From: a virus
IMG/VR virus record: IMGVR_UViG_3300037325_000203
Length of the DNA stretch: 64,000 nucleotides
Reading direction: 5' to 3' (one strand)
In this document: piece after piece, positions 13,780 through 47,209 of the stretch
Numbering within the stretch: the stretch's first letter is position 1
Layout of the letters: each line of letters opens with the position of its first letter
Notes under the pieces: model-generated
Databases searched by the model: none
What the model saw: the letters and a program-made list of their open reading frames with translations, nothing else
What the model was told of the DNA's origin: nothing
Program-made: the position numbers and the translations under genes

Positions 13780-14307
13780 TTAAAATGTGCTTAACACTAA
13801 ATGTATTCTTGTTGTTTTTCCGGAGTTAACAAATGTATGTCGGTTTCTTGTATCAGTGAAATATAAATACCCATCTGCGGGTATATGAACTGCCAGCCTC
13901 TCACTACTAAATAAAAAAACACAATCATCGTTTGTTTCTATTGCCATATGATATCTTGTCAGTACATCTTTATGGGTGGTATATACAAATTGAGGTCCCA
14001 TTGTCATAATTCTTAAACGACAAATATTCATATGCTTTGATAAATCCATATACATATTGTGCAGTTCGGTATTGACAAACTTTTTGTTAAATATGCAAAA
14101 CCTTTTATCGGGATGCAACTGGGTGTTATGTTTTGTGACATTTACTGCACCAGCCGACTCAAACACCTTATCAGCTTCCGTAACAGCAGATTCGGAATGC
14201 ATTAGCCCTATTTGTTGCGGGTTATCATAATCATTTAGCATCTTTAAGACCTCGGCCCTGATCAAAGGTAGGTTGTACTGAAAATTTGTTTTGTGTAGTA
14301 AATCCAT
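13780..14307 (-). CDS. Asp/Asn beta-hydroxylase-like 2OG-Fe(II) oxygenase
   Basis: RLRIM..HKD..RYH..HTFVN..RIHLV. Confidence 0.75.
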   Translation of the reverse strand: MDLLHKTNFQYNLPLIRAEVLKMLNDYDNPQQIGLMHSESAVTEADKVFESAGAVNVTKHNTQLHPDKRFCIFNKKFVNTELHNMYMDLSKHMNICRLRIMTMGPQFVYTTHKDVLTRYHMAIETNDDCVFLFSSERLAVHIPADGYLYFTDTRNRHTFVNSGKTTRIHLVLSTF

Positions 14308-33258: not shown

Positions 33259-33537
33259 TTATTTGCAAGAGCTTAGTGCAATTCTGAGTTCTTCCTCATA
33301 TGCTTCTCTAATCATCCTATCAGCAAGGGTAGCTTTTACTTTGTCAAATATGTTACTTTCTTCTGTCAACTTATCAAAGTTAAATTCCGGCAGTGCAGGT
33401 GTATCTACTTTACACGGTACGGAAATCGGAATCTCGACACGCTGTATAACAGTGTTGATTACTGGTTCGCGCTGTGTTGCGCACGAAGCTAGAAAAACTA
33501 TTGATCCAAATGTTACTAATAACTTATTTTTTCGCAC
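33259..33537 (-). CDS. o-spanin (Rz1-like lipoprotein)
   Basis: Lipobox FLASC, V.IPISVPC, overlaps i-spanin end. Confidence 0.8.
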   Translation of the reverse strand: MRKNKLLVTFGSIVFLASCATQREPVINTVIQRVEIPISVPCKVDTPALPEFNFDKLTEESNIFDKVKATLADRMIREAYEEELRIALSSCK

Positions 33538-33925
33538 GGCGGATCTCCTCGTTAAACAATTCGTTTGCAGCATCACACTGGGTGGCGCCTTGCGGCACAG
33601 TTCTCTTCAGTAACACATCTGCTGACAATTTTGCTGTCTCGGTATTGGCCCTGACCTTCAAAATTTCCTGCTGTGCTTTTTTGAATCTGGTGTCGGAATC
33701 GGTTTTAAGTTTGCCTATTGCTGCGTTTTGGTCTTCGACAGCTACTGTAAGACTAGTAACTGACGCCTGGGACACGCCTAGTTCTGCAACTAAGGTATTC
33801 TTATCAGCTTCTAGTGTTGATTTTTGTGCCTTTAATAACGTGATGTAATACCCGGATCCAGCAATTACTGCTATCAAGGTAGCTATAGCGATAAGTTGCC
33901 AATTTTTTAGTATTAATGCAATCAT
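33524..33925 (-). CDS. i-spanin (Rz-like)
   Basis: N-terminal TM plus coiled coil, C-terminal Cys; late motif upstream. Confidence 0.8.
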   Translation of the reverse strand: MIALILKNWQLIAIATLIAVIAGSGYYITLLKAQKSTLEADKNTLVAELGVSQASVTSLTVAVEDQNAAIGKLKTDSDTRFKKAQQEILKVRANTETAKLSADVLLKRTVPQGATQCDAANELFNEEIRRAKK

Positions 33926-33945: not shown

Positions 33946-33962
33946 TATTTATCTGATAAATA
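33946..33962. promoter_or_regulatory. Back-to-back late promoters TATTTATC-T-GATAAATA
   Basis: Perfect 8-bp inverted repeat between divergent genes. Confidence 0.75.
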
Positions 33963-33999: not shown

Positions 34000-34320
34000 A
34001 TGTTTTTACACCGTGTTACAATTCATCGCCCAGATACTTCAAGTGATTTTTTCTACTCAGCAAATAATGTATTATCTAATCAGGCGTATATCGATATGGT
34101 CGATGCGGCAACCGCAGTTGGGAAAATAATTAATACAAGTTTATCTCTTAGCAATGACGAACTGAGCATTGTTAGAGAGGCCACATGGGACGATGAAGCA
34201 TCTTTCTTCGAGTTCTTAGAGGAATACACTACAAACGTGTTTCCCGACTATACTGCAGAATTTCTTAGCTATAATACCGCCCACAATCACATAGGTGTGT
34301 TTGAGTCTGAAATTAGTTAA
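34000..34320 (+). CDS. Small acidic hypothetical protein
   Basis: Strong AAGGAG RBS, late motif. Confidence 0.75.
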   Translation: MFLHRVTIHRPDTSSDFFYSANNVLSNQAYIDMVDAATAVGKIINTSLSLSNDELSIVREATWDDEASFFEFLEEYTTNVFPDYTAEFLSYNTAHNHIGVFESEIS

Positions 34321-35053
34321 CTGAAAACACTTTATCAATTAATAACCCATACGCATCAAATTCGCCCTTTACTCCATAAGTAAATGACCCAGGGTACTTA
34401 TGGTGATTATTATGATTTCCTACACCAGTTAGTAAGTTAACTAATGTGTTGTTGTAAGCAACCGCATCATCGAACTGCTTACTTCCTTTGCTATGACTAA
34501 CAACATTAACAATACAAGTACCTATGTACCACATTGCCGATCCTGCTACTATTATAAAGAATAAGTACGGGCTAAGAATAAATGTAGTTACCCACAGTAC
34601 TACCCACATATAGAAATAGTAAGTATTTTCAAAAAGAAAATATTTAACACTCGACGATCGCATTAAATCAATCACTAAGTTATTTTTATATGTTGTTGGC
34701 AATAATGCCAAGTATATTTGCCACCAAGTCATATGGTGTGGGCTGTGTGGATCTTTTTTAGTATCTTCGTACGCATGGTGGGTCCGATGGACTGTAACCC
34801 ACGACATTATCGCCCCTTGCCCGGTTAAAAATGCAAATACTCGTAATATACGCTCGCGTACCGGACCAGTAATGTACGATTTGTGAGTATAGTACCGATG
34901 CAATGATATTTCGCTCATTGCACCAAAGATATACAACATAATTATGGCTACAGGTACTAACCAAATACTAAAATTAAGCGCAAGGAAACCAAAGAAAAAT
35001 AATTGATTTGCCCAAATTACTAGTTGGGTCTGTCTATAGGATGTAAGATTCAT
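34313..35053 (-). CDS. Membrane fatty-acid desaturase (delta-9-like)
   Basis: HRYYTH, HRTHH, DPHSP, HNNHH. Confidence 0.9.
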   Translation of the reverse strand: MNLTSYRQTQLVIWANQLFFFGFLALNFSIWLVPVAIIMLYIFGAMSEISLHRYYTHKSYITGPVRERILRVFAFLTGQGAIMSWVTVHRTHHAYEDTKKDPHSPHHMTWWQIYLALLPTTYKNNLVIDLMRSSSVKYFLFENTYYFYMWVVLWVTTFILSPYLFFIIVAGSAMWYIGTCIVNVVSHSKGSKQFDDAVAYNNTLVNLLTGVGNHNNHHKYPGSFTYGVKGEFDAYGLLIDKVFSVN

Positions 35054-35085
35054 AATGAACGGTCTCTTTTTAACATAAATAAGTC

Positions 35086-35853
35086 ATGAACTCCCACTTT
35101 TACAAAATTATTTTACCAATGTGGCTATTGACGGGCGCTTCGTTAATAGTATTTATAATCAATTTTCAATCAGTGTTTGTTATTTATGCATTACTGGGGC
35201 TGTACCTAGCAGGCGTGTTTGGCAACACTATCGGGTTTCATCGTTACTTTACTCATCAGAGTTTTTCTGTAAACCGGTTCTGGCATTACACATTTTTAGT
35301 GTTGGGCAGCATGACTGGCCAGGGTTCTTTGATCTTTTGGACATCGTTGCATTTACATCATCACAGAAATTCTGACAACGACAAAGATGTTCACAGCCCG
35401 CGACGCGGATTCTGGAAATCTACGATATTGTGGCAAGTAAAATCGGATTTCCATAATACCCCAGGGTTAATTGCGCCAAAAAAATTATACAGAGACAAAG
35501 TTGTTAAATTTTTCCACTACCATTATTACAAGCTGTATTGGGCAGTTGGCGTAATTTTAGCACTCATAGATATATATTTTTTCTTATTCTTTTTTTGTGT
35601 AGGTGCATTTTTTCTTACTTCTATTCTAGATAATATGAGTAACTTTCTTATGCACTGGCCGGGCGTAGGCTATGTGAATTTTGAAACAAAAGATTCATCC
35701 AGGAATGTACCTATAATTGCGTACATATCCCTAGGCGGAGGATGGCACAATAATCACCACCATGATCCAAAAAATTACAGGTTTGGCGTATTTCCAAAAG
35801 AATATGATATCGGTGCACGCATTATAGATTTAATAAAGGAAAAAAATGTTTGA
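35086..35853 (+). CDS. Membrane fatty-acid desaturase
   Basis: HRYFTH, HLHHH, DVHSP, WHNNHH. Confidence 0.9.
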   Translation: MNSHFYKIILPMWLLTGASLIVFIINFQSVFVIYALLGLYLAGVFGNTIGFHRYFTHQSFSVNRFWHYTFLVLGSMTGQGSLIFWTSLHLHHHRNSDNDKDVHSPRRGFWKSTILWQVKSDFHNTPGLIAPKKLYRDKVVKFFHYHYYKLYWAVGVILALIDIYFFLFFFCVGAFFLTSILDNMSNFLMHWPGVGYVNFETKDSSRNVPIIAYISLGGGWHNNHHHDPKNYRFGVFPKEYDIGARIIDLIKEKNV

Positions 35854-37351
35854 TGTTGTTATTTTCTCCGATACATCACTGTCGGATCTTGATTACATAG
35901 CCGAAGAAAAGGTTAAAGAAATATCAAACCTTGCCGATATAATAAAAGAACTACCTGCAAAAAGTGCAGGCGCCCATCGTATAAAAACAGAAGTAAGAAA
36001 TGCAGGGTACACATGCAAAGTAATAGATTTGTTATTTTATTTCACAGAAGGAGAGATCTCAGAAGTATGTAAAAAATACCTATCGTCGGAGACTCGTGTT
36101 ATTGGATTTAGCACTACCTTCTGGTCTAATATAACAACTGATGCGCACCGCAGTAAAATATTTAAGATAGTATACGAATATTCTCGCAGGCTTACGGGGC
36201 CAAAGATTGTATTCGGAGGAACACTTGCTGATAATTTTTCAAATAAAATCTACGCCGATAAAACGTTTAGTGGATTTACCGAAGAAGAGTTTGTAAATTA
36301 CTTGTACGAACTTACAGGCAAGGAAGACCGGCTAGTATTCGACTTTAATAAATCCACGATAGAATACAATGCCGATGATTTTGTTGACTGTGGAGAAAGT
36401 CCTGTTATAGAAATATCTAGAGGTTGCATATTTAAATGCTCCTTCTGTGCTTACCCCTTAAACGGCAAAAGTAAATTCGACTATATAAAAGACGAAGAGA
36501 TATTAAAAACCGAATTAATAAAAAATTACGAACTTCACGGAATTACAACTTACACCTTTAGCGACGACACATTTAATGATTCCACTTATAAAATGGAATA
36601 CTTACATAAAATTTTTACATCGTTACCTTTTAAAATTCAGTTTGTTGCATACGCCAGACTCGACCTATTAAATTCCCACAGAGAACAGGTCGATCTATTA
36701 AAAGAGATGGGTCTTGTAGGTGCCTTTTTTGGAATCGAGACTTTAAATCACCAGTCGGGTAAAGTGATAGGAAAAGGTATAAATCCCGAGAAAGTTAAAG
36801 AATTTTTATACGAGTTAAAATCCGAATACTGGAAAAATGACATTAATATCACAATAGGCTTAATTAGCGGATTACCATTTGAAACTACAGAATCACACCG
36901 TGCCACATTAGACTGGATCTCAAATAAAGATTACTGCCTGGTTGACAGGATTAGGCCTGCGGCACTAAGCATACCTAATCCACTATTAGACAAATATCCT
37001 TTCAAAAGTGAATTTCAATTAAATGCACCGAAGTATGGATTCTACTGGCCGAATAAAGATTCAGATAAATGGAAGAATTTTTCACACGAAATTAAGTCGC
37101 AGGACATAGCTATAGAAATGTCGAGAGAAATGTACGAAGTTGCAAGACAAGCGGGTAAAGTGTCAAAGGGTAATTTTGGTTTACCACTAACTGCAAATAT
37201 AGCCAAGTATGGTAAAGAACCAAAAACTTTAGCAGATATCATACAGATGCCGGCGGAGGAGCACGAACTATGGCTTAGTCGTAATCGACACGATATGATT
37301 ACAGGCTATGTAAATAATTATAAATTCAATACACTGAATAAATTTATCTAG
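35846..37351 (+). CDS. B12-binding-domain radical SAM enzyme
   Basis: SRGCIFKCSFC, DDTFND, FFGIETL, ISGLPFE. Confidence 0.88.
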   Translation: MFDVVIFSDTSLSDLDYIAEEKVKEISNLADIIKELPAKSAGAHRIKTEVRNAGYTCKVIDLLFYFTEGEISEVCKKYLSSETRVIGFSTTFWSNITTDAHRSKIFKIVYEYSRRLTGPKIVFGGTLADNFSNKIYADKTFSGFTEEEFVNYLYELTGKEDRLVFDFNKSTIEYNADDFVDCGESPVIEISRGCIFKCSFCAYPLNGKSKFDYIKDEEILKTELIKNYELHGITTYTFSDDTFNDSTYKMEYLHKIFTSLPFKIQFVAYARLDLLNSHREQVDLLKEMGLVGAFFGIETLNHQSGKVIGKGINPEKVKEFLYELKSEYWKNDINITIGLISGLPFETTESHRATLDWISNKDYCLVDRIRPAALSIPNPLLDKYPFKSEFQLNAPKYGFYWPNKDSDKWKNFSHEIKSQDIAIEMSREMYEVARQAGKVSKGNFGLPLTANIAKYGKEPKTLADIIQMPAEEHELWLSRNRHDMITGYVNNYKFNTLNKFI

Positions 37352-38075
37352 GCGATTTTCTTAATAACTTAATCAGAAAATATCCCGGGTCAACTCCTAC
37401 AGCATTAGAGAAGTCAGGGTCTGCAGGAAAATCATGATGGTGTCGATGATAACCTTCACCAAAGGTTAACCATGCCAGTAATGTGCTCTGCTTGATCGGG
37501 TCACCGGCCTTGCCGTAGTGGCATAAGATGTTGCACAGTGAAATATTTGCCCAACACAGGGCACCGGGTGCTACAAATAGTGTCATTGTCCACCAGATGC
37601 CAAGAAACCATAAACTTATAAGAACTACCGATAGTATTATCGACAGGTAGTGATTATGTATAAATCGGTGAAATTTATCATTCCAAATATCTCGCACTAA
37701 AGTAATGCTTAATTTCTTTGGTTGCAACATCGGAAAATACACATGAAAAAGGTCCATTACTCTAGGACTATGTGGGTCTTTTTCTGTGTCAGTATAGGCA
37801 TGGTGGTATCTATGTGCTAATGTACGGGTCACCGGTGTGCCTGTAAAACTAAATATACCAATGATTGTTGCAAAAATTTCATACCACCGCGGTGCATCCC
37901 AGCTTCGGTGGCTTAACAACCTATGATATACCAGTGTACTGGAAAATTGTGTAATTATTACAAATATTAAGAATGTGATAAGGATATGAATAATGGGTGC
38001 ATACACCAGTACCGCAAAAAAAGAAATGTGAGAAATTAGTAATAGTAAAAAAAATTTATTAGAAGTAAATTTCAT
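37344..38075 (-). CDS. Membrane fatty-acid desaturase
   Basis: HRLLSH, HRYHH, DPHSP, GEGYHRHHH. Confidence 0.9.
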   Translation of the reverse strand: MKFTSNKFFLLLLISHISFFAVLVYAPIIHILITFLIFVIITQFSSTLVYHRLLSHRSWDAPRWYEIFATIIGIFSFTGTPVTRTLAHRYHHAYTDTEKDPHSPRVMDLFHVYFPMLQPKKLSITLVRDIWNDKFHRFIHNHYLSIILSVVLISLWFLGIWWTMTLFVAPGALCWANISLCNILCHYGKAGDPIKQSTLLAWLTFGEGYHRHHHDFPADPDFSNAVGVDPGYFLIKLLRKSPR

Positions 38076-38800
38076 GTCTGTATAGTAAACACAGTATGTT
38101 TTGTTTTTCGCCCAGGTAATACCCTAGCATCGGGAATATTTTTTAAGATATAATCTCTATCAAAAAATGTCTCTATCCATGTATGTGGCCCAATGTCACC
38201 GAGTGTGTACTGGTCAACAATCGATAATGATCTGTCAATAAGATATAACGACTCTTTAAACTCGAGATTAGCCGACGACGGTAAAGTAATTCCCAATTGC
38301 TTAGGCAGGAATATCTGGGTGTACTTAGGGAAATGTTCTCTTTCCCAGGCCGAAAATACAATTACCCCACCCGTAGCAATAATTTTTCTGAAGTGTGCTA
38401 TTTTCGAAATTATTGTGTCCATATCGCAATGAGTAAATACACCATGGCACACAATAACATCTGGCTGTACCACGGCCGGCATACAGTATTCCGTACCGGT
38501 GGGATTAAAACAGGAATGATACCCGTTATAATAAATCCATGTTGCTGCAGGATAAGAATTTTTAGCAATTTCTAATGGTTCTGCAATAACATCAAGTCCT
38601 ATATAATTCTCATCCTTGATTTTACCGCCCGATGTAATTAAAAGATTACCTATATTACACCCGTAGTCTAATATAGTTCTGTTGTACCAATCTGCATCGA
38701 TTTGCGAAAGTCGGTCATCTAGTAAGCCGAATACATCTTGATTTAGTGGTTGAATGTATTTGGCATATCTTTGGTTCACATTGTGATCTGTTAGATACAT
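38072..38800 (-). CDS. Class I SAM-dependent methyltransferase
   Basis: ILDYGCNIG, YIGLDV, VFTH. Confidence 0.85.
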   Translation of the reverse strand: MYLTDHNVNQRYAKYIQPLNQDVFGLLDDRLSQIDADWYNRTILDYGCNIGNLLITSGGKIKDENYIGLDVIAEPLEIAKNSYPAATWIYYNGYHSCFNPTGTEYCMPAVVQPDVIVCHGVFTHCDMDTIISKIAHFRKIIATGGVIVFSAWEREHFPKYTQIFLPKQLGITLPSSANLEFKESLYLIDRSLSIVDQYTLGDIGPHTWIETFFDRDYILKNIPDARVLPGRKTKHTVFTIQT

Positions 38801-39438
38801 TCTTTAATTACTTCCAAGTTAAAATAATCCGGCAGATTTCTGTACTCCGGTTTTAGGCAACAATTTACTACCATGTAATCTGTATCAAAGATTTTTTTAC
38901 CTGCCATATTAAAAAATGCATCCGAGTTTGAACGATTACCAGCCTTTATAACATCGACTATGAATCTGTCATATCGATAACTATTTTTCTCAGAATCATA
39001 TCCCATCTTGCAGTTCATTAACATATCTTTACCAGTATATTGTAATTTATGATATGCCGGGGATAAACTTCGGTTATAATACCAGGTGTATAAGCCTAGC
39101 TCTTCTGCAGCAGTAAGAATATAATTCATAACAGGTAATAAGGGATTAGACTCGCTCGAGAAATCGTACCTATTCAGTATGCCAGATTTTACATTTAAAT
39201 TACCCACATGATATACAGGGACAAGCTTCCAAATAGTATATTTCATATACGCCACTAATTCATTGTCTGCAAATGCACCCACGTATGTTGTACCCGGATA
39301 CTTAAAATCGGTAAGAATTTCGTCTTTATTTCTTATCAAGCTAGTCCGCATCACCTTCTTCGGTGAAATGAAAATATCACTAGCCTGTTCGATGTCGTTT
39401 TCAGTAAGGTTCCTTACTGCATATTTAGAAATAATCAT
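38791..39438 (-). CDS. Hypothetical, GNAT-like
   Basis: VRNLTENDI..YVGAFADNELVAY; start probably MIISKY. Confidence 0.5.
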   Translation of the reverse strand: MIISKYAVRNLTENDIEQASDIFISPKKVMRTSLIRNKDEILTDFKYPGTTYVGAFADNELVAYMKYTIWKLVPVYHVGNLNVKSGILNRYDFSSESNPLLPVMNYILTAAEELGLYTWYYNRSLSPAYHKLQYTGKDMLMNCKMGYDSEKNSYRYDRFIVDVIKAGNRSNSDAFFNMAGKKIFDTDYMVVNCCLKPEYRNLPDYFNLEVIKECI

Positions 39439-39502
39439 AACATTATTTATCGTGGTGGCATCTGTCTCGACATAAATAAATAACAATTAAATAGGTATTA
39501 AA

Positions 39503-40123
39503 ATGTTAAAAATTATTAAATCTCCGTTAAACATTGTCGACAGATCTGTCATTAATGTGATTCCCGTTGACGGAGAACTCGATATGCACCAGACAGGATA
39601 TAACAGGTTTATTATGTTAGACGGAAATATTAAATCAGCTGTCTTGAGTTGCACGGGCGTAATGGCTGCAACACTAACTGATAAATTTTCACTAAATGGT
39701 AAAGGTGTTGTCATCGAAACTCCGGGGCATTTCTTTAATGAGCAGAAAATGTCAATTATCAAACCAGGGACTTTGGGAAATCTGAGTTATATTGACGGAT
39801 GTAGTAATTCTAATTTAATCGATCCTCCGCGTAACGGAGACCCGTGCCTGAACTATCTTTATTTCCCGAAAAATATTAATCAAACATTTCATACTCACCC
39901 TAGTGTCAGGATAGGATTTATATTATCGGGTTCGGGCACGGCTTCAGTCGATAATCATAATGTAAACTTACAAACAGGCGACGTGTTTGTATTAGACAGG
40001 CATACTCTTCACAGATTCTCGACAAGTGGTTCTCATATGTCACTAATGGTATTCCACCCCGACAGCGAGGACGGGCCCCGAGATGAACACAATCCCATGA
40101 AATCTAGGACATACCTAAGCTAA
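39503..40123 (+). CDS. Cupin-domain protein
   Basis: HTHPS.R.G..LSGSG, H.F, FHPDS. Confidence 0.8.
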   Translation: MLKIIKSPLNIVDRSVINVIPVDGELDMHQTGYNRFIMLDGNIKSAVLSCTGVMAATLTDKFSLNGKGVVIETPGHFFNEQKMSIIKPGTLGNLSYIDGCSNSNLIDPPRNGDPCLNYLYFPKNINQTFHTHPSVRIGFILSGSGTASVDNHNVNLQTGDVFVLDRHTLHRFSTSGSHMSLMVFHPDSEDGPRDEHNPMKSRTYLS

Positions 40124-41284
40124 AAGTGGCGAATTATAAAATTTACTCACTAAGTAATTGTTGTTGTATATCTTAAATCCGTTATGAGCGCTGTTAAGGT
40201 ATTTTTTGTCAATAGTTTTATAAAAAGCCCGGGTATCTGATACCATCATCTGATGCGACATTGTGCTGCTGTGGTGCTTATAAAACCAGTTGTCGTGTTC
40301 GCCCAAAAATAACTTTGTAGGTTTTTCCGCTTGAAAAATTGCTGTATGCGTTGACTCATAGATGCACGGCACTATTGCTCTCTGAAATTTACTATTCATC
40401 TCTCTCATTGATTCAAATGTGGCATGCTTGTGCAAAGTCGTATCGTGTAAGTACGACCTCGGTATATTATTTTCAGGTAGCAGTAACCACCTCATTAGCA
40501 CATGGGCTTGCTTCACTAAAAGATTAGTGCAAGAATGATCCCAGTAGAACATAACAGTATCGACATTTGTATAGTCCCGGTCAAACGGCGGTCTGGCCAC
40601 GTTTACTGCCAAATCTGAGAATACAGTGTAAATGTCCTTCTCGTCTGAGAGCACCAAGTGGGGCTTATCAATTCCGTAGACAAACGCTACTCGCTTGCCC
40701 GAATCTGCAAGATCTCTGAGATGTGCGTGTCTTTCAAATCGGTACCTAGCGGCAGACGAGGGGTGTATCCAATCATCGCATCTTAGTAACCAATCATCGG
40801 TTTTATAGTCTAGAATATCCCGAAAATAATCATGTATGGTTATTTTTACATCAGTATATTTTTGGGATATTTCACGAATTAACGGCATCTGTGCATATAA
40901 CGTTTCGCTAATGGTATTATTATGCGATGTATCTGTGCTATTGAATTTATAATCCCGTAGTCCCTCTAAAGGCGCACTTGCTATCACTTCATCGACTCGT
41001 ATGCCATTTTTTAAAAACGACCTGAGCACATTAGTGCTATCGGCGCCGCCGCTGCATAAAACCACAACATAGTCGTATGCTTCTCGAATTGAAGTTGCCC
41101 TGTCCTTATACAAACTGTCAAGACTGGCTGCTGGTTCACAGGACCAGTCTACTTTAGATAACACATCGGAATAAAAGTCCCAGGTAATATCTGCCTTTAT
41201 GGAATTTGCTTCCATAATTGCATCAATCTTATTAGAGAAAAATTTTCCATTTGTCTTATAAAACGGTGTTAAAGGACGAGTCAT
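40115..41284 (-). CDS. Adenine-nucleotide alpha-hydrolase (PP-loop)-like protein
   Basis: SGGADS, G.DKP. Confidence 0.7.
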   Translation of the reverse strand: MTRPLTPFYKTNGKFFSNKIDAIMEANSIKADITWDFYSDVLSKVDWSCEPAASLDSLYKDRATSIREAYDYVVVLCSGGADSTNVLRSFLKNGIRVDEVIASAPLEGLRDYKFNSTDTSHNNTISETLYAQMPLIREISQKYTDVKITIHDYFRDILDYKTDDWLLRCDDWIHPSSAARYRFERHAHLRDLADSGKRVAFVYGIDKPHLVLSDEKDIYTVFSDLAVNVARPPFDRDYTNVDTVMFYWDHSCTNLLVKQAHVLMRWLLLPENNIPRSYLHDTTLHKHATFESMREMNSKFQRAIVPCIYESTHTAIFQAEKPTKLFLGEHDNWFYKHHSSTMSHQMMVSDTRAFYKTIDKKYLNSAHNGFKIYNNNYLVSKFYNSPLLA

Positions 41285-41832
41285 TCTTTAACCTCTCGGT
41301 TATTGCGAAATTCTATCTTTAAAGTTCTTTGTTTTATAACAACATCATACGGCTTGGTACCACCTATCAACCGCGCCATCCAGGGAGACTCTGAAATAGT
41401 TCCTGCAGGTATAATAGCAACATCCTCAATATCGTATTTTTTCTGATCTGTCCATTTATCATAGTAAACTCGCTGGGCCTTTACTGCAATACTATAAAGG
41501 TAGGTATAGTGCCCGGTTTTCTCCCCAAGTGCGCGAAAATAATGCATTAATTCGCCGAATCCGGCGGCATCGTAGTTAAATAAATTAGACTGTGTTCTCT
41601 TAACAAACGAAATAACGTACCAGACATTGTTACCGTGTAACGTACCAAACCTAGCAGCCGCCCATGAGATCATTATTCCGTTAACAAAAAATCCAATTGT
41701 AATATTTTTTTCGTGCGACAATATATCAGTGATATTTTCTCTAGTAAAATGTACTGTTTCTTTTCGCTTTGGCCGAATTTTAGCGATCTCTAAAACAGCA
41801 TCTGTATCGGTAATATCTAAAACTCTAATCAT
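41281..41832 (-). CDS. Hypothetical, GNAT-like (paralog of 38791)
   Basis: IRVLDITD..IGFFVNG..I.AG..D.V. Confidence 0.5.
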   Translation of the reverse strand: MIRVLDITDTDAVLEIAKIRPKRKETVHFTRENITDILSHEKNITIGFFVNGIMISWAAARFGTLHGNNVWYVISFVKRTQSNLFNYDAAGFGELMHYFRALGEKTGHYTYLYSIAVKAQRVYYDKWTDQKKYDIEDVAIIPAGTISESPWMARLIGGTKPYDVVIKQRTLKIEFRNNREVKE

Positions 41833-42737
41833 AACATGTTATATAGATTGTCAACAGGTCTATCATAATAACTGCGATAAGGAAGACCGTTGTATTTTTT
41901 ATTTAAGTGATTTTCAAATTCATCCATAAGATCAACCGGGTACTTTTCGAACCCGGTTTTCTTAACACGAGTAATTAATTCCGGGTATGCTTCTCGATAC
42001 CCCATAATCTTAGTGGAATTAGTTCCCAATTTTCCATAGAATTCATCATTAATGAGAGACTTGCACCAGCGCAGATTAAGAAAAGATTGTACTAGCCCCG
42101 GTGTCCACTTAAACCATTCTGCCACCGCGGGTCGATTAATCTCTCTTATAAATTTAGACCATCCCACATCATGTTCCCAGCACCTGACAACCCACTCGCC
42201 TTGTTTCGTATAGTCGTCGTTGAGTCGTGCAATAGATAAATCACTACTGCCTAACAATGGCAGACCGTCAACCATTTCTAAAAATTTACAATACGGTAGC
42301 GCACGAGGCCGGTCGATCTGCGATAGCTCAGATACTCGCTCAGCATCATTTTCGTAGAATTTTTTAAGATTAAAGTTGACGATTTTGTATTTAACATCCA
42401 GTGCCGAACATACTGTAACAGCATAACTTACATCATATATGTTATAATCGTTTTCATATCTAAATATACATACATCGGGAACGACACCCAATTCTAGATA
42501 CGCCCGTAACATTAATTCGCTATCAAGGCCGCCGCTGAACAGTATTGTCGGAGTTAGGTCAGGGAAATGTTCTATGGTGCTGGCTGCTGCCTTAGATAAC
42601 TCTAATTTAAAACTGCCAAATTTGTTATGTTCTGGGAAAGTAAAATTTGTAATGAATTCTTGATTATGCTCTTTTCGAGAAAACGGAACTAAATTGTACT
42701 GCCAAGAATACCAGTTATTTTCGCTAGTATAAATCAT
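41829..42737 (-). CDS. Asparagine-synthase-like PP-loop protein
   Basis: LFSGGLDSE, R.KKTGFE. Confidence 0.7.
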   Translation of the reverse strand: MIYTSENNWYSWQYNLVPFSRKEHNQEFITNFTFPEHNKFGSFKLELSKAAASTIEHFPDLTPTILFSGGLDSELMLRAYLELGVVPDVCIFRYENDYNIYDVSYAVTVCSALDVKYKIVNFNLKKFYENDAERVSELSQIDRPRALPYCKFLEMVDGLPLLGSSDLSIARLNDDYTKQGEWVVRCWEHDVGWSKFIREINRPAVAEWFKWTPGLVQSFLNLRWCKSLINDEFYGKLGTNSTKIMGYREAYPELITRVKKTGFEKYPVDLMDEFENHLNKKYNGLPYRSYYDRPVDNLYNML

Positions 42738-43162
42738 TTTATCTTTCTATATGTGTTGAATACCAAATCCCATGTGGGCAAAAAAAGTCCGTAATTAAAT
42801 GGTGACGAATGGTGAATGAGGTGCCAGCTGCCGCTTGTCAGTACTGGCAGATTAAACAGGGGATTGTGTTCAATCCTTTCCTGAATTAGTGCAGCCCATA
42901 CATAGTAGAATAATAAAATCCACCACGTCTGAAATATAATACAATAAATCAGTGTCGGTAATACTTCGGTTATCCAAAGATCTAGACTACTCTGAAAATT
43001 ATCGTTGTACAGAAATAAATTATTCCAGTGCCACTTAACTGTATTCTTGCTTATGAATATATGGTGAGAAAAATGAATTTGTCGTACACCGGGAATTTTA
43101 TGAGATGCTCGATGAATCCAGTACAGGACAAATGTCCATGCTAGAAAATGTGCTAACAGCAT
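42734..43162 (-). CDS. Sterol desaturase/fatty-acid hydroxylase family
   Basis: YWIHRASH, HFSHH, HLIHH, NYG..WD..F.T. Confidence 0.85.
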   Translation of the reverse strand: MLLAHFLAWTFVLYWIHRASHKIPGVRQIHFSHHIFISKNTVKWHWNNLFLYNDNFQSSLDLWITEVLPTLIYCIIFQTWWILLFYYVWAALIQERIEHNPLFNLPVLTSGSWHLIHHSSPFNYGLFLPTWDLVFNTYRKIK

Positions 43163-43933
43163 TTACTGAGTTTTTATAAGTTTTATTACCAGGCCGCCTA
43201 TGTCCACCTGCCACCAATGCTCGCTAGTGGTGTATCTTCTCGGCCACCTGTGGTGATTGTTGTGCCAGGCCTCTCCCCAGGACGGTAGCGCCCATACCCA
43301 GTTATTGCAACTATGATCTGATAACTTATAAGTCTTAAATGACCCCCACCACGACTCTTTGTGGCCGGCGTAATTTACAATATTGCTCATTATAGCAGCA
43401 ATCACAATTGGTGACCAATGCAAGAATATCATTAGATACCACCCACCTATTGCAAATAATAGCAAACTCCAGCCTATTAGAAACGCATAATAATATTTGT
43501 GCAACATTCTATAAAATGGGTTTGCAATAATATGCTTTATTCGCCATTTTATCTTGTCGTCGACTGGGTACTCTAATAAAAATACTTTCCATCCCAGCAT
43601 CCACGGACTATGTGGATCGCCGACTTTATCGGAGTGTAAATGATGCTTTATATGAATAGCCGACCATACTATCGGGCTACCTGTATTTGCCATTGAGCCA
43701 AGGAACGCACCGATATATTCTATTGCAGGATATGTACTATAGCCTCTATGTGTTAAATTTCTGTGAAATGTTACGACAACTCCAAGGCAAACATATAAAA
43801 AGTATCCAAGAATTGTTAGTCCGACAGTACCTAGTGTGATACCATACACACTAAATCCGATTATTGACCCAATAATGGATAACACCGCCAATAGCTGAGT
43901 GGTTAGTGTATTGCTAGTTAAGATTTTTATCAT
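43163..43933 (-). CDS. Membrane fatty-acid desaturase
   Basis: HRNLTH, HIKHH, DPHSP, GEAWHNNHH. Confidence 0.9.
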   Translation of the reverse strand: MIKILTSNTLTTQLLAVLSIIGSIIGFSVYGITLGTVGLTILGYFLYVCLGVVVTFHRNLTHRGYSTYPAIEYIGAFLGSMANTGSPIVWSAIHIKHHLHSDKVGDPHSPWMLGWKVFLLEYPVDDKIKWRIKHIIANPFYRMLHKYYYAFLIGWSLLLFAIGGWYLMIFLHWSPIVIAAIMSNIVNYAGHKESWWGSFKTYKLSDHSCNNWVWALPSWGEAWHNNHHRWPRRYTTSEHWWQVDIGGLVIKLIKTQ

Positions 43934-43937
43934 AATA

Positions 43938-44552
43938 CTATTTATCAGCCCTAATGTCGGCCCATGCTGGTTCATAATTCTCATCAATTTTGTGATATAT
44001 AGCCCATTGCCTTGTATGATTTATAGTAACGGGGTAATCGACCCTGTGTTGACCGTTATAAAACATACTGCCGGGTTTTCTTTTCTTTTCAACACCCGCG
44101 CCAGCGCGATAAAAATACGGCAATAAACGTTTATTATATTCGTTAAATGTTAGAGCAATTGTTTTAAGATTGCGTTCTTCGCACCAACTTAATTGCAGGG
44201 GTAAAACAAATCGACCTATTACAACTTTTCCCCGGTATTCTTTCGAAAGCCAGGTGCGTACACCACCAATTGCAACATGCTGGTCAAAGTCGGACACATT
44301 AACGCCCGAGTTTCCGACTATATTACCGATGTCATCAAATAATAGAAACATATCGCCGTTGTTGTTTCGAAACCGAGAGCTAGTATATATTAAATATGGT
44401 AATGTATTACTGCAATTTTCCCAATCCTCGTTCCACATGTTTATGTGACTAGGTTCAGTGTTTTCTTGATAAGCATTAAAACAATATTCGAGTATTTTAT
44501 CCTTTTGGGTAATATGATAGTTTTTCTCAAATACACTTGCTGTGTTAAACAT
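43938..44552 (-). CDS. GNAT-like protein
   Basis: RTWLSKEYRGK motif A-like, LTFNEYN. Confidence 0.55.
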   Translation of the reverse strand: MFNTASVFEKNYHITQKDKILEYCFNAYQENTEPSHINMWNEDWENCSNTLPYLIYTSSRFRNNNGDMFLLFDDIGNIVGNSGVNVSDFDQHVAIGGVRTWLSKEYRGKVVIGRFVLPLQLSWCEERNLKTIALTFNEYNKRLLPYFYRAGAGVEKKRKPGSMFYNGQHRVDYPVTINHTRQWAIYHKIDENYEPAWADIRADK

Positions 44553-45315
44553 TCTGCTTTACTAAATTGATTAAGTAGGCAATCGGATCAAGCTCGGTTT
44601 TTTTCACACCGAGGTTGTAATTTCGCGGACTATAATGATGATTATTGTGCCATGCTTCTCCAAGAATAAAAGGCCATAAGTAAGCAAAATTTTGACTGTT
44701 ATCCTTTGTACTAAAGTTTCTATAACCCACATTTACATGTGCATAGTAATTCCACGCATCTTGGGTTACTTGATTAAAGCAAACCGGTAATATCCATGCA
44801 AAATATAAAGTAGTGGGCGAGATTAATAACAGAATTAGGCACCATGTTGCAATCATAAGAATATAATATTGATTGATAAATTTATGTTCTTTGGTTAACA
44901 TATCTCTAATTACAAATAGGTCTATATCTTTGCCGAATGCTGATCGAAAACTGAAAAGAGATAGCTTTTCAGGTTTATGCGGATCTTTATTAGTGTCTGC
45001 ATGTTTATGATGCATCCTATGCACCCTAGCCCAAGCCATTGGTGTGCCCCTGGAGGAAACAATCGAAATTCCTGTAAAAATCCACTTTACTAAAGGGTAT
45101 TTAAACTCGTAACTCCTATGCGTGTAATATCTGTGCAATACCATACTTACACCAATAGCACTATAAATATAAAAGAAGAATAATGTAGTAACAATCATAG
45201 GTATAGTCCATTGCACCAGAAATGCACCTATTATACTCCCGGACAATGCGATGTACTGTAAAGACAGATGTTGGTTGTTAGTGAACTTTGTATTAAGCAT
45301 ACTCATATTTATCAT
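44545..45315 (-). CDS. Membrane fatty-acid desaturase
   Basis: HRYYTH, HRMHH, DPH, GEAWHNNHH. Confidence 0.9.
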   Translation of the reverse strand: MINMSMLNTKFTNNQHLSLQYIALSGSIIGAFLVQWTIPMIVTTLFFFYIYSAIGVSMVLHRYYTHRSYEFKYPLVKWIFTGISIVSSRGTPMAWARVHRMHHKHADTNKDPHKPEKLSLFSFRSAFGKDIDLFVIRDMLTKEHKFINQYYILMIATWCLILLLISPTTLYFAWILPVCFNQVTQDAWNYYAHVNVGYRNFSTKDNSQNFAYLWPFILGEAWHNNHHYSPRNYNLGVKKTELDPIAYLINLVKQNV

Positions 45316-45821
45316 GTTTGGCGTATTTTTATACTTTCTAATATAGATGAAAACGAATCGCGTAGCCAGATAACTCTTAGTATTTGCCGAGTAGGTCCAG
45401 TGGCACGAATTGGCACACTGTGGATAGTTTGCGTATCTAGTAAAAAAACATCACCTGTGTATGCACTAAAACTTCCAATTTCTGATAATACTAAGAGTCT
45501 TGACTCGTCGGTAGTTATTCGATAATTTGTTGCATGAAGTTTTGATTTCCAGAATTTAGTTTCCGCGCCATCGGCATTTAGATAATAATTCATTACAACA
45601 GAATAAGCATCTGTATGCGGAGTTGCACCCGGGTAATCAATTGATGTTAAATTAATCTTATGCGGCGGTATACCAAAATCTAGCCGGGAGTACATAGATT
45701 GCAGGACATAGTCATAATTCTTTATTCCGTATTCGGAAAAATTCTTATTTGTATAAAATACGCCAGAGTATTCGATATTATCTTTTAAGTCGCCAAAGTC
45801 GACACTTATTTTTTCAAACAT
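45312..45821 (-). CDS. Putative 2OG-Fe(II) oxygenase
   Basis: PHTD..MNYYL..LLD..IHSV..R. Confidence 0.65.
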   Translation of the reverse strand: MFEKISVDFGDLKDNIEYSGVFYTNKNFSEYGIKNYDYVLQSMYSRLDFGIPPHKINLTSIDYPGATPHTDAYSVVMNYYLNADGAETKFWKSKLHATNYRITTDESRLLVLSEIGSFSAYTGDVFLLDTQTIHSVPIRATGPTRQILRVIWLRDSFSSILESIKIRQT

Positions 45822-45867
45822 TCGTTAATCCGATATTTATCAGTATTTACCTAATAATTTTAGTCAT

Positions 45868-45909
45868 AAAAAAACCTGCTACCGGATTAACCAATAGCAG
45901 GGTATTTTA
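45868..45909 (-). terminator. Terminator after erpA
   Basis: CCTGCTA..TAGCAGG stem followed by T run on minus strand. Confidence 0.7.
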
Positions 45910-46236
45910 TACTGAGAAGCTACTTCCGCATCCGCATGTACTTTCGGCACCGGGATTACTAATAGTAAACTGACTGCCATTTAAGTCGACCTTATAGTCA
46001 ACAGTGGCACCTGTGAGATATTGCATACTCATTGCGTCAACTATAAACGCTACGCCGGACTTAATAACTTCAAAATCGTCTTCATTGGCCACTTCGTCGA
46101 AGGTGAACCCGTACTGGAAGCCAGAGCAACCACCGCCCTGGACAAACACGCGCAGCTTCAACTCAGGATTTCCTTCTTCTGCAATTAGTTCCGATACTTT
46201 GCTGGCAACTGCGTCTGTAATGTTAATTTGATCCAT
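45907..46236 (-). CDS. erpA: Fe-S cluster insertion protein ErpA
   Basis: [25 protein letters not shown]; start MDQIN. Confidence 0.92.
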
Positions 46237-46237
46237 G

Positions 46238-46825
46238 TTAATTCCTAATAAGTTCGTATCTGCTTGTTGTTCTGTTAAATAACACGACACCGCTTTTCAC
46301 TAGTTCAAAAATTATGCTCTCACTTGCTGCATGTAGCTTGTTATGCACTGCAACGGTGGTCAAAAATAAATTCGACATATCATTGTTCTGCTTGTCTCCG
46401 TCGATATGATGAACAACTTCACCCTTATTCAACCCTCGTTTTAAATAACACTCCATTAAATATACATGCTCCCTTATCGATCTGTAACCCCCGGGTTGAT
46501 AAGGATAGTCTTTACCGATATATACTTCGGGATAACCACTTCGGCTAAGCTTTTTAAATCCAACACGATCGCCAAGAGACTTCTTTATCTTTGCTTCATA
46601 CCCGACTATGCCGGCAATTTTGGCGACGCCATGTAATGCCACACATGCTGGGCAAAATGTCTTTGCATTCTTCTTAGTCTGACTCGTCTTAGCTCGAGTA
46701 AAAATCGCTATACACAAGTCACGTTCAAATTGGGCCACAAAAGAATTTCTGCAATATGTAACTAACTTTCCAAATTTGCTGGATCTCACAAATTCTGTTG
46801 ATACTACTGTTTCCCCGACGTACAT
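46238..46825 (-). CDS. HNH homing endonuclease
   Basis: [23 protein letters not shown]. Confidence 0.85.
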
Positions 46826-46882
46826 TATGATGCCTTTAATTATTTTATAAAAGAGAATAGCATATAGAATTTTATTCTCTTA

Positions 46883-47209
46883 CTAGATCTGCACTCGAAA
46901 GCTCAGCCCACATCCGCAGCGATCTCGCTCATTTTTATTAATAAATTCAAAGCCTTCATTTAGGCCATTTCTTTTATAATCTATCATAATACCGTTTAGA
47001 TAAACTATACTTTTTGCATCAACATACACCTTGGTCCCAAACGATTCAAATTCTAAATCGCCTTCTCTGACCACATCGGCATACTCCAGAACATATGCAA
47101 ATCCCGAGCAACCTGTAGTTTTAACTCCAAGTCTGATACCCAGGCCGGACCCCCTACGGGTTAAAACTTTCTGTACCTTTGATGCTGCTACTTCTGTTAA
47201 CTCGATCAT
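46883..47209 (-). CDS. iscA: Fe-S cluster assembly protein IscA
   Basis: RLGVKTTGCSGFAY..GLNEGF..CGCG.SF. Confidence 0.92.
   Translation of the reverse strand: MIELTEVAASKVQKVLTRRGSGLGIRLGVKTTGCSGFAYVLEYADVVREGDLEFESFGTKVYVDAKSIVYLNGIMIDYKRNGLNEGFEFINKNERDRCGCGLSFRVQI

Follow-up and report, generated by a model that had tools for sequence, protein, structure and literature searches.

Recurrent gene islands of uncultured aquatic phages combine diverged desaturases with candidate amide-forming enzymes

Why should a bacterial virus carry five different membrane desaturases, and do the genes packed around them act with them? The question is raised by a 64,000-nucleotide stretch of DNA from the IMG/VR virus record IMGVR_UViG_3300037325_000203 (the whole stretch is called the window below), in which an island at positions 34000-45821 holds desaturase genes interspersed with genes for PP-loop enzymes, proteins resembling GCN5-related N-acetyltransferases (GNATs), a radical S-adenosylmethionine (SAM) enzyme and oxygenases. 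A sequence-only reading had taken the island for a joint pathway rather than a set of lone desaturases carried as auxiliary metabolic genes (AMGs), and our analysis supports it in so far as the genes behave as one conserved module. The island genes are intact, belong to recognisable enzyme classes, are coupled to one another and are inherited together; their families travel with either of two anchor genes in uncultured phages and are often adjacent and translationally coupled. We tentatively read the island as a modular, phage-borne pathway that may tailor fatty-acyl chains and couple them via amide bonds.

The island comprises 16 open reading frames (ORFs) lying back to back, with a coding fraction of 0.996 (99.6%); the tight packing seen earlier is thus correct, while the earlier count of 15 was one short. 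Its junctions consist of 12 overlaps, one abutting pair (gap 0) and two true gaps of 32 and 16 bp. Overlapping stop and start codons define six units, listed here in map order with the names used below.

Unit 1 (+), acid106 as a single gene
34000-34320 (+), acid106, predicted small acidic dimeric alpha+beta barrel of antibiotic-biosynthesis-monooxygenase (ABM)/Dabb type, SP100 superfamily (AlphaFold2 (AF2) pLDDT 95)
Unit 2 (-), DesA as a single gene
34313-35053 (-), DesA, membrane desaturase paralog of stearoyl-CoA desaturase 1 (SCD1) type, with His boxes (PF00487, 1e-13)
Unit 3 (+), DesB-rSAM, joined by overlapping stop/start codons
35086-35853 (+), DesB, desaturase paralog (PF00487, 1e-15), with an 8-nt overlap with the radical SAM gene
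35846-37351 (+), rSAM, radical SAM enzyme, class-B (B12-type)-like (PF04055, 7e-15; CxxxCxxC at residues 194-201)
Unit 4 (-), G231-MT-DesC, joined by overlapping stop/start codons
38791-39486 (-), G231, GNAT-fold protein of the G183/f31 family, likely start M17
38072-38800 (-), MT, class I SAM-dependent methyltransferase (Methyltransf_12/23; weak UbiG match)
37344-38075 (-), DesC, desaturase paralog (PF00487, 7e-14), the last gene of its unit
Unit 5 (+), cupin as a single gene
39503-40123 (+), cupin-domain protein of metal-dependent oxygenase or isomerase type (Cupin_2, 2e-9)
Unit 6 (-), ox169-DesE-G204-DesD-FAH-PP302-G183-PP389, eight genes joined by overlapping stop/start codons, ox169 first
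45312-45821 (-), ox169, small 2-oxoglutarate (2OG)/Fe(II)-oxygenase-like protein (invariant H69, D71, H134 and R145)
44545-45315 (-), DesE, desaturase of a second conserved orthogroup (PF00487; clade support 100/99)
43938-44552 (-), G204, GNAT-fold protein
43163-43987 (-), DesD, desaturase of a conserved orthogroup (PF00487; clade support 100/100, 9 rows), likely start M19
42734-43162 (-), FAH, small (142 aa) membrane di-iron protein of the fatty-acid/sterol hydroxylase family
41829-42737 (-), PP302, PP-loop ATP pyrophosphatase, NAD-synthetase-like
41281-41832 (-), G183, GNAT-like protein
40115-41284 (-), PP389, PP-loop enzyme with the predicted fold of the asparagine synthetase B (AsnB) synthetase domain

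The five diverged proteins that had been recognised as desaturases by their three His boxes do belong to that class. All match PF00487 well above its cut-off (E 1e-12 to 1e-15, 48-59 bits versus 29.7), and HRxxxH, HRxHH, DPH, NxxxH and HNNHH are present in each of them. The di-iron ligands HX4H, HX2HH, NX3H and HX2HH do not vary among the five window paralogues or among 42 members of the family, and nine His residues are invariant across these 42 paralogues. A profile of the family aligns to mouse SCD1 (4ymk) with an E value of 4.6e-38 over residues 49-302, the catalytic core, with all boxes aligned. Two hydrophobic hairpins occur in all five proteins at about residues 20-70 and 145-200, and within the island such hairpins are limited to the desaturases and FAH. 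At about 245-275 aa these are short, minimal versions: they keep the ligands and both hairpins of mammalian SCD1 (PDB 4YMK/4ZYO) but are about 90 residues shorter and lack its N- and C-terminal extensions. A CrtW/CrtZ-type carotenoid ketolase or hydroxylase was also considered for these proteins of about 250 aa and for the 142-aa FAH, and for the desaturases it was ruled out by the HX4H first box, the SCD-type DPH motif and the strong SCD1 match.

Pairwise identity among the five is 22-29%. A tree that includes 45 relatives places DesD and DesE in fully supported orthogroups common to many phage contigs and puts DesA, DesB and DesC on long branches, a pattern that points to old functional diversification and not to recent duplication. 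DesE has 67 metagenome homologues at 39-62% identity, counted apart from the window's own protein (100%), and its nearest cellular protein is 28% identical, which argues against recent host copies. By this sequence evidence, the set is an old, phage-resident radiation of intact enzymes. Among 50,697 GenBank phages, a tblastn search with DesB found three distant phage desaturases only and a megablast search with the island found no match, and a PHROGs search of the island proteins gave almost no matches.

These features set the island apart from the phage desaturases described so far. Cyanophage vFAD lipid desaturases are single DesC-like genes, near to host DesC and of Delta9 type, and have been read as fluidity AMGs (Roitman et al. 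2018, ISME J, PMC5776448). Like them, the window proteins are myovirus membrane desaturases that have three His boxes and are of the Delta9/SCD-DesC type; closeness to a host DesC and single copy number, which characterise vFAD, are replaced here by 28% identity to the nearest cellular protein and by five paralogues. In contrast to published phage desaturases generally, the island holds five (elsewhere up to eight) deeply diverged paralogues of about 250 aa. None of them exceeds 28% identity to the cellular proteins found, and they belong to a fixed module whose other genes encode PP-loop, GNAT, radical SAM and oxygenase proteins. A passing mention of freshwater pelagimyophages with both fabF and a stearoyl-CoA desaturase (fonsimyophage; Zaragoza-Solas et al. 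2020, PMC7029224) matches loci among the island's relatives that have a ketosynthase (KS) and desaturases. A full-text literature search found no paper on this module.

Whether the neighbours belong with the desaturases was addressed by synteny in IMG/VR. Single-protein scans with the radical SAM protein or PP389 gave no matches, and loci were obtained by alignment-based scans: 65 via an alignment of PP389 homologues and, via a desaturase alignment, at least 590 stretches, of which the best 78 loci are considered here. Most of the PP389-anchored loci at ≥40% identity have, in addition, desaturases (1-8 copies), PP302, G204, a B12-type radical SAM gene, the cupin, G183 and SP100. Approached from the other side, G204 is the most constant partner of the desaturases, present in 58 of the 78 desaturase-anchored loci and adjacent to a desaturase in 18. 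PP302 follows (52/78, adjacent in 11), then the B12-type radical SAM gene (30/78, adjacent in 17), PP389 (28/78, adjacent in 4) and G183 (16/78, adjacent in 13). At least two desaturases are present in 39 of the 78 loci and a single one in the other 39, and desaturase-anchored loci without any partner exist (e.g. L101 and L143). The PP389 and desaturase anchors thus recover the same gene set, and the genes do not assort independently.

The relatives also contain genes that the window lacks. An acyl carrier protein (ACP; PF00550, 2e-14) found among the relatives directly adjoins a desaturase and a second radical SAM gene, and a FabF-like KS occurs in three contigs, each with at least five desaturases. 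Further genes of the relatives encode Rieske, PhyH and Amidohydro_2 proteins, PurD- and RimK-like ATP-grasp ligases, TctC/DctP binding proteins and a GT1 glycosyltransferase. When ACP, KS, TctC, DctP, Rieske, PurD and other neighbour families were compared with the window by tblastn, one unrelated match was obtained, to family f28 (about 165 aa) at 13792-14085(-) with 37% identity. The window shares the island with the IMG/VR loci and almost none of their flanking families, so the module persists on different phage backbones. Two elaborations were observed in particular loci. L073, L113 and L116-L118 have two to five paralogues from a second radical SAM family (about 370-420 aa), arranged in arrays just upstream of a G204-desaturase-B12-type radical SAM triad, and these arrays have no counterpart in the window. 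L013-L016, L018 and L039 have up to four copies of PP389 and up to three of a small ABM-type protein, interleaved with TctC/DctP, Amidohydro_2 and a 305-aa family (f40).

The partner enzymes indicate what the module might do. Two ORFs had been read as SGGxDS adenylating-type enzymes, and both keep the motif, as SGGADS in PP389 and SGGLDS in PP302, where SGGxxS is invariant in the family. The AF2 model of PP389 (pLDDT 91.7) matches AsnB (1ct9) with a VIA Z score of 11.3 over 282 residues (rmsd 4.9, about 10% identity), and its other fold matches include beta-lactam synthetase, carbapenam synthetase and TsnB9 (VIA Z 9.7, 8.4 and 8.6). This fold was found by a full VIA search; Foldseek alone gave weak PP-loop matches, and a PP389 profile found nothing meaningful among PDB sequences. 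PP389 shares the SGGxDS loop and the synthetase fold with these AsnB-class enzymes but is without their Ntn glutaminase domain: its 389 residues align only to residues 133-515 of 1ct9, so that the protein begins in the synthetase part. PP302 is nearest by profile to NadE, the NH3-dependent NAD synthetase (9e-8), followed by TtuA (6e-5). No Cys is invariant or near-invariant in the alignments of PP302 (24 sequences) or PP389 (29 sequences), which argues against chemistry of the TtuA/NcsA or QueC type and favours adenylation of a carboxylate followed by amide formation. PP389 has more than 248 metagenome homologues, while tblastn found no match in the 50,697 GenBank phages and an alignment scan of GTDB genomes found no relative.

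Three ORFs had been called GNAT-like, an assignment that holds for G204 and G231 by fold and for G183 by homology to the G231 family. The Atlas structure of G231 has template-modelling (TM) scores of 0.58-0.80 to RimI-type GNATs, and that of G204 has TM scores of 0.61-0.72 to GNATs. Profile comparison with hhalign links G183 and G231 by way of the recurrent family f31 (99.5% for G183 and 96.5% for G231), making these three one superfamily. No homology was detectable between the G183 and G204 profiles, and the island would accordingly hold two separate GNAT-like families. Sequence matches to known GNATs are weak throughout (2e-4 to 2e-3, with G183 reaching 2e-4 against PDB GNATs); G204 scores 18.1 bits against the GNAT Pfam model, below the cut-off of 20.7, and none of 13 G183-type members has a Pfam match. 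The G204 family comprises 425 clusters at 50% identity, and none of the 10 clusters checked carries a functional name.

The remaining enzymes would suit oxidation and methylation. FAH is the hydroxylase previously noted as sterol-desaturase-like, confirmed by PF04116 (2e-12) and three His boxes, and has orthologues in about 10 loci. The methyltransferase and cupin assignments are supported by the Pfam matches listed above, and cupin orthologues (43-60% identity) adjoin the AsnB-like gene in about seven distinct contigs. For the radical SAM protein the core assignment is secure, while its B12-type character, also proposed earlier, is suggested by its best NCBIfam matches, the B12-binding class-B families PhpK, TIGR04072 (from residue 42), HpnJ and HpnR, all of them far below cut-offs and with no separate Pfam match to the B12 domain (PF02310). 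A 2OG oxygenase had likewise been proposed for ox169. It has no Pfam match and its best PDB match is weak (E 0.17); the invariant HxD...H...R pattern that it shares with the recurrent 170-aa family f25 (hhalign 97%, E 6.5e-11) is consistent with the proposal.

The small acidic ORF at 34000, acid106, had been regarded as a possible carrier or substrate, and here the evidence points elsewhere. Its model adopts a beta-alpha-beta-beta-alpha-beta ferredoxin-like fold of the type of about 100 aa, and Foldseek matches it with probability 1.0 to 2op5, 7bio, 1lq9 and 3kg0, which are ABM monooxygenases and marine dimeric ferredoxin-like proteins; by role, these are antibiotic-biosynthesis monooxygenases and uncharacterised marine proteins. 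The DSL phosphopantetheine motif is absent and the predicted fold is not a four-helix bundle. The acid106/SP100 superfamily has 37 members in related loci. The protein is best modelled as a folded dimeric barrel and hence an enzyme-type component, neither carrier nor precursor.

Taken together, a core that recurs in hundreds of uncultured aquatic phages is probably a real, undescribed pathway that edits fatty chains during infection. Our acyl-amide reading is inferred from the acyl-chain specificity known for SCD-type enzymes, from the ACP and FabF genes of relatives and from partner classes that form amides or transfer acyl groups. In the proposed scheme the desaturases, using O2 and host reductant, would desaturate host-derived acyl chains at different positions; the chains may be presented as acyl-ACP, acyl-CoA or membrane lipid. 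Oxygenases (FAH, the cupin, the 2OG-type ox169 and the ABM barrel) and methylases (the class-B-like radical SAM enzyme and MT) could decorate the chain or its head group, and the PP-loop enzymes and GNATs would link the acyl group with amino or carboxyl partners. The pathway would thus yield an N-acyl-amide or aminolipid-like compound that is both unsaturated and oxidised. Its synthesis would fall at least in part in late infection, and it may alter the host envelope or serve as a small molecule. A more far-reaching version, which we consider possible but doubtful, is that aquatic myophages and jumbo phages share a pathway in which a mini SCD-type desaturase radiation, glutaminase-less AsnB-like and NadE-like amide synthetases and phage-only GNATs would yield a virus-specific polyunsaturated, oxidised N-acyl-amide lipid or signal, which would be inserted into the infected cell or leave it and would govern envelope properties, lysis or competition. 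The phage radiation of mini-desaturases can be likened to that of the moth pheromone desaturases.

Several points weigh against this assignment of chemistry. Motif and tblastn searches of the window found no ACP, KS, fatty acyl-AMP ligase (FAAL), thioesterase, ferredoxin or rubredoxin, and a motif search in all frames of the 64-kb window gave no credible ferredoxin, rubredoxin, cytochrome b5 or ACP. Without a carrier, an acyl-activating enzyme and a reductant in the window, the pathway would have to draw acyl-ACP, acyl-CoA or membrane lipids from the host, together with its ferredoxin or flavodoxin. In sequence, the PP-loop and GNAT proteins show no similarity to characterised lipid enzymes (no match to OlsB/PF13444, LuxI or FAAL), and the activities of the members are predicted ones. 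The sugar transferases, solute-binding proteins, ATP-grasp ligases and Rieske/amidohydrolase genes of related islands would suit peptide, sugar or aromatic-acid chemistry equally well, and this mixed content leaves room for a non-lipid target. T4-like phages, moreover, gather unrelated AMGs in hypervariable regions, so part of the co-occurrence may be hitch-hiking.

The alternative that survives best takes up the question of the target. Here the island would tailor a peptide or protein, an envelope glycan or peptidoglycan, or a small carboxylic or amino acid; its ligases, GNATs, radical SAM enzyme and oxygenases would be central, and the desaturase-like proteins would be oxygenases acting on a membrane-anchored intermediate. 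The RimK-/PurD-like ligases, PhyH, Rieske, Amidohydro_2, TctC/DctP, GT1 and second-family radical SAM arrays of relatives fit this, as does the match of PP389 to the AsnB-like fold, since lasso-peptide cyclases and beta-lactam synthetase are among the AsnB-like enzymes that have no working glutaminase. We nevertheless consider it unlikely. An island that is 99.6% coding has no room for the precursor peptide expected of a ribosomally synthesized and post-translationally modified peptide (RiPP), its sole small ORF is predicted to be a folded ABM barrel, it has no glycosyltransferase, and SCD1-type enzymes act on acyl chains, with ACP and FabF beside them in relatives.

A second alternative denies the pathway altogether and seems to us improbable. 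Each desaturase would be a plain Delta9 acyl-lipid enzyme that raises host membrane fluidity under cold or salt, with paralogues for different hosts or lipid classes, and the neighbours would be unrelated genes sharing a hyperplastic region. The proven Delta9 activity of single DesC-like cyanophage desaturases (PMC5776448), the Delta9/SCD pattern of the His boxes, the lack of carrier and acyl-activating genes in the window, and the 39 of 78 desaturase-anchored loci with a single desaturase, some of them partnerless (L101, L143), all agree with it. Against this stand the 22-29% identity of the paralogues and their separate conserved orthogroups, the distance from cellular desaturases (28% to the nearest), which speaks against recent host copies, and the repeated adjacency and translational coupling of G204, PP302, G183 and rSAM to desaturases on different backbones.

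The version first proposed for the island, in which a polyunsaturated or alkyne/polyyne acyl group of the JamABC or cay/pgn-like kind is attached to virion proteins and ORF 34000 acts as the carrier or substrate, is very improbable: several desaturases in one cluster, the ACP and KS beside desaturases in some relatives and the structural-gene-like GATAAATA motifs before some island units suit it, whereas ORF 34000 has an ABM/Dabb enzyme fold with no phosphopantetheine-type motif, only the desaturases of such a cassette were found (FAAL, ACP, thioesterase and rubredoxin are absent from the window), all paralogues show the Delta9/SCD box pattern, and nothing links the island to virion proteins.

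Comparison with known multi-enzyme systems brings out where the acyl-amide reading has precedents. JamA/JamB/JamC and the bacterial polyyne clusters (cay, pgn, ccn) use clustered membrane desaturases and an ACP to over-desaturate a carrier-bound acyl chain. The island is like them in its several clustered desaturases, with an ACP in relatives only, and differs in having PP-loop and GNAT partners, which are not known from such cassettes, and, in the window, no FAAL, thioesterase, rubredoxin or ACP. The ornithine-lipid/aminolipid route (OlsB, OlsC/LpxO, OlsD, OlsE, OlsG) applies a GNAT-fold N-acyltransferase, 2OG and di-iron hydroxylases and a methyltransferase to an amide-linked lipid. This is the same mix of enzyme classes as in the island; the island nevertheless has no sequence match to OlsB (PF13444) or LpxO, and desaturases and PP-loop amide synthetases are not known as Ols components. 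Among viruses, coccolithovirus (EhV) encodes a multi-enzyme sphingolipid route with desaturases, a fatty-acid hydroxylase-family enzyme, host-derived serine palmitoyltransferase and ceramide synthase and a known product. The likeness lies in a virus with a multi-enzyme lipid-type gene set; EhV is a eukaryotic giant virus, and it is not known to share specific families other than PF00487 and PF04116.

The timing of expression can be approached through ATAAATA motifs, of which the window contains 47 against an expected 30 +/- 5. All five sites cited earlier as late motifs exist (33955, 35076, 39444, 43938 and 45834), and two features flank the island:

33946-33962 (strand not assigned), back-to-back ATAAATA motifs, late-promoter-like, in the divergent intergenic region between the spanin genes and acid106
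45834-45840 (-), GATAAATA motif, 19 nt upstream of the ox169 start

In the GATAAATA form, the motif precedes tail-sheath, virion and spanin genes by 25-50 nt and acid106, the cupin gene and ox169 by 19-44 nt. The spanin copy is the inverted partner of the acid106-facing copy, the two forming the palindromic pair at 33946-33962. As the spacing resembles that at structural genes, the acid106, cupin and ox169 units may plausibly be expressed late, as had been proposed for the whole cluster. For DesB, G231 and DesD, the motif starts just 11-12 nt upstream of an ATG, and at positions 39438, 43933, 35086 and 13064 ATAAATA ends 4-5 nt before an ATG. Motifs so close to the ATG suggest shorter true starts for G231 at M17 (39438) and for DesD at M19 (43933), and the Atlas record of G231 begins at residue 17. 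If ATAAATA is a late -10 element, this arrangement suggests that transcripts at these genes are nearly leaderless, with very short leaders.

The window itself is phage DNA, as indicated by rIIA, endonuclease V, RNA ligase and tail-sheath and virion proteins, together with 32 tRNAs and one tmRNA. Its sheath-associated protein is 43% identical to that of the Pseudomonas jumbo phage PA5oct, and its rIIA is about 32-35% identical to those of T4-like phages. The phage is recorded in a protein collection as a 161-kb contig. Salt-lake metagenomes contain DNA near-identical to the window: by contig layout, the stretch is whole in one sequencing run, from which it may stem, and fragmented but near-identical in a second salt-lake run. 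The spanins reported beside the cluster are present at 33259-33925(-), where an i-spanin (N-terminal transmembrane segment and coiled coil) overlaps an o-spanin with an L-A-S-C lipobox.

Other observations concern the island's composition and right-hand border. The G+C content of 34001-46000 is 0.36-0.39, versus about 0.41-0.45 for most of the window, which is compatible with acquisition from another phage. To the right, an HNH endonuclease gene (46238-46825) lies between two full-length phrog_17776 paralogues (45907-46290 and 46883-47209; all within 45907-47209(-)), and a 96-bp piece at 46075-46170 is found again on other contigs in three runs, where its flanks are unrelated. In run X3, contigs of a related strain contain the DesD-G204-DesE-ox169 part (43184-45988) and diverge from the window at 43184; one of them has 75 differences in 722 bases and the others are nearly identical. 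This faintly hints at a DesD-G204-DesE-ox169 sub-module that sits beside different neighbours in the run X3 relative.

Phage desaturases are currently viewed as single, host-derived fluidity genes, and the module described here differs in its at least 590 stretches, its phage-only families and its up to eight desaturases per phage. If the acyl-amide reading is true, bacterial viruses would make their own lipids or lipid-like metabolites, an ability so far known mainly from giant algal viruses, and functions would be gained for several large viral protein families now called hypothetical. The islands would also be a source of new desaturase regiospecificities and amide-forming enzymes, and would add a lipid dimension to the remodelling of abundant aquatic bacteria by their phages.

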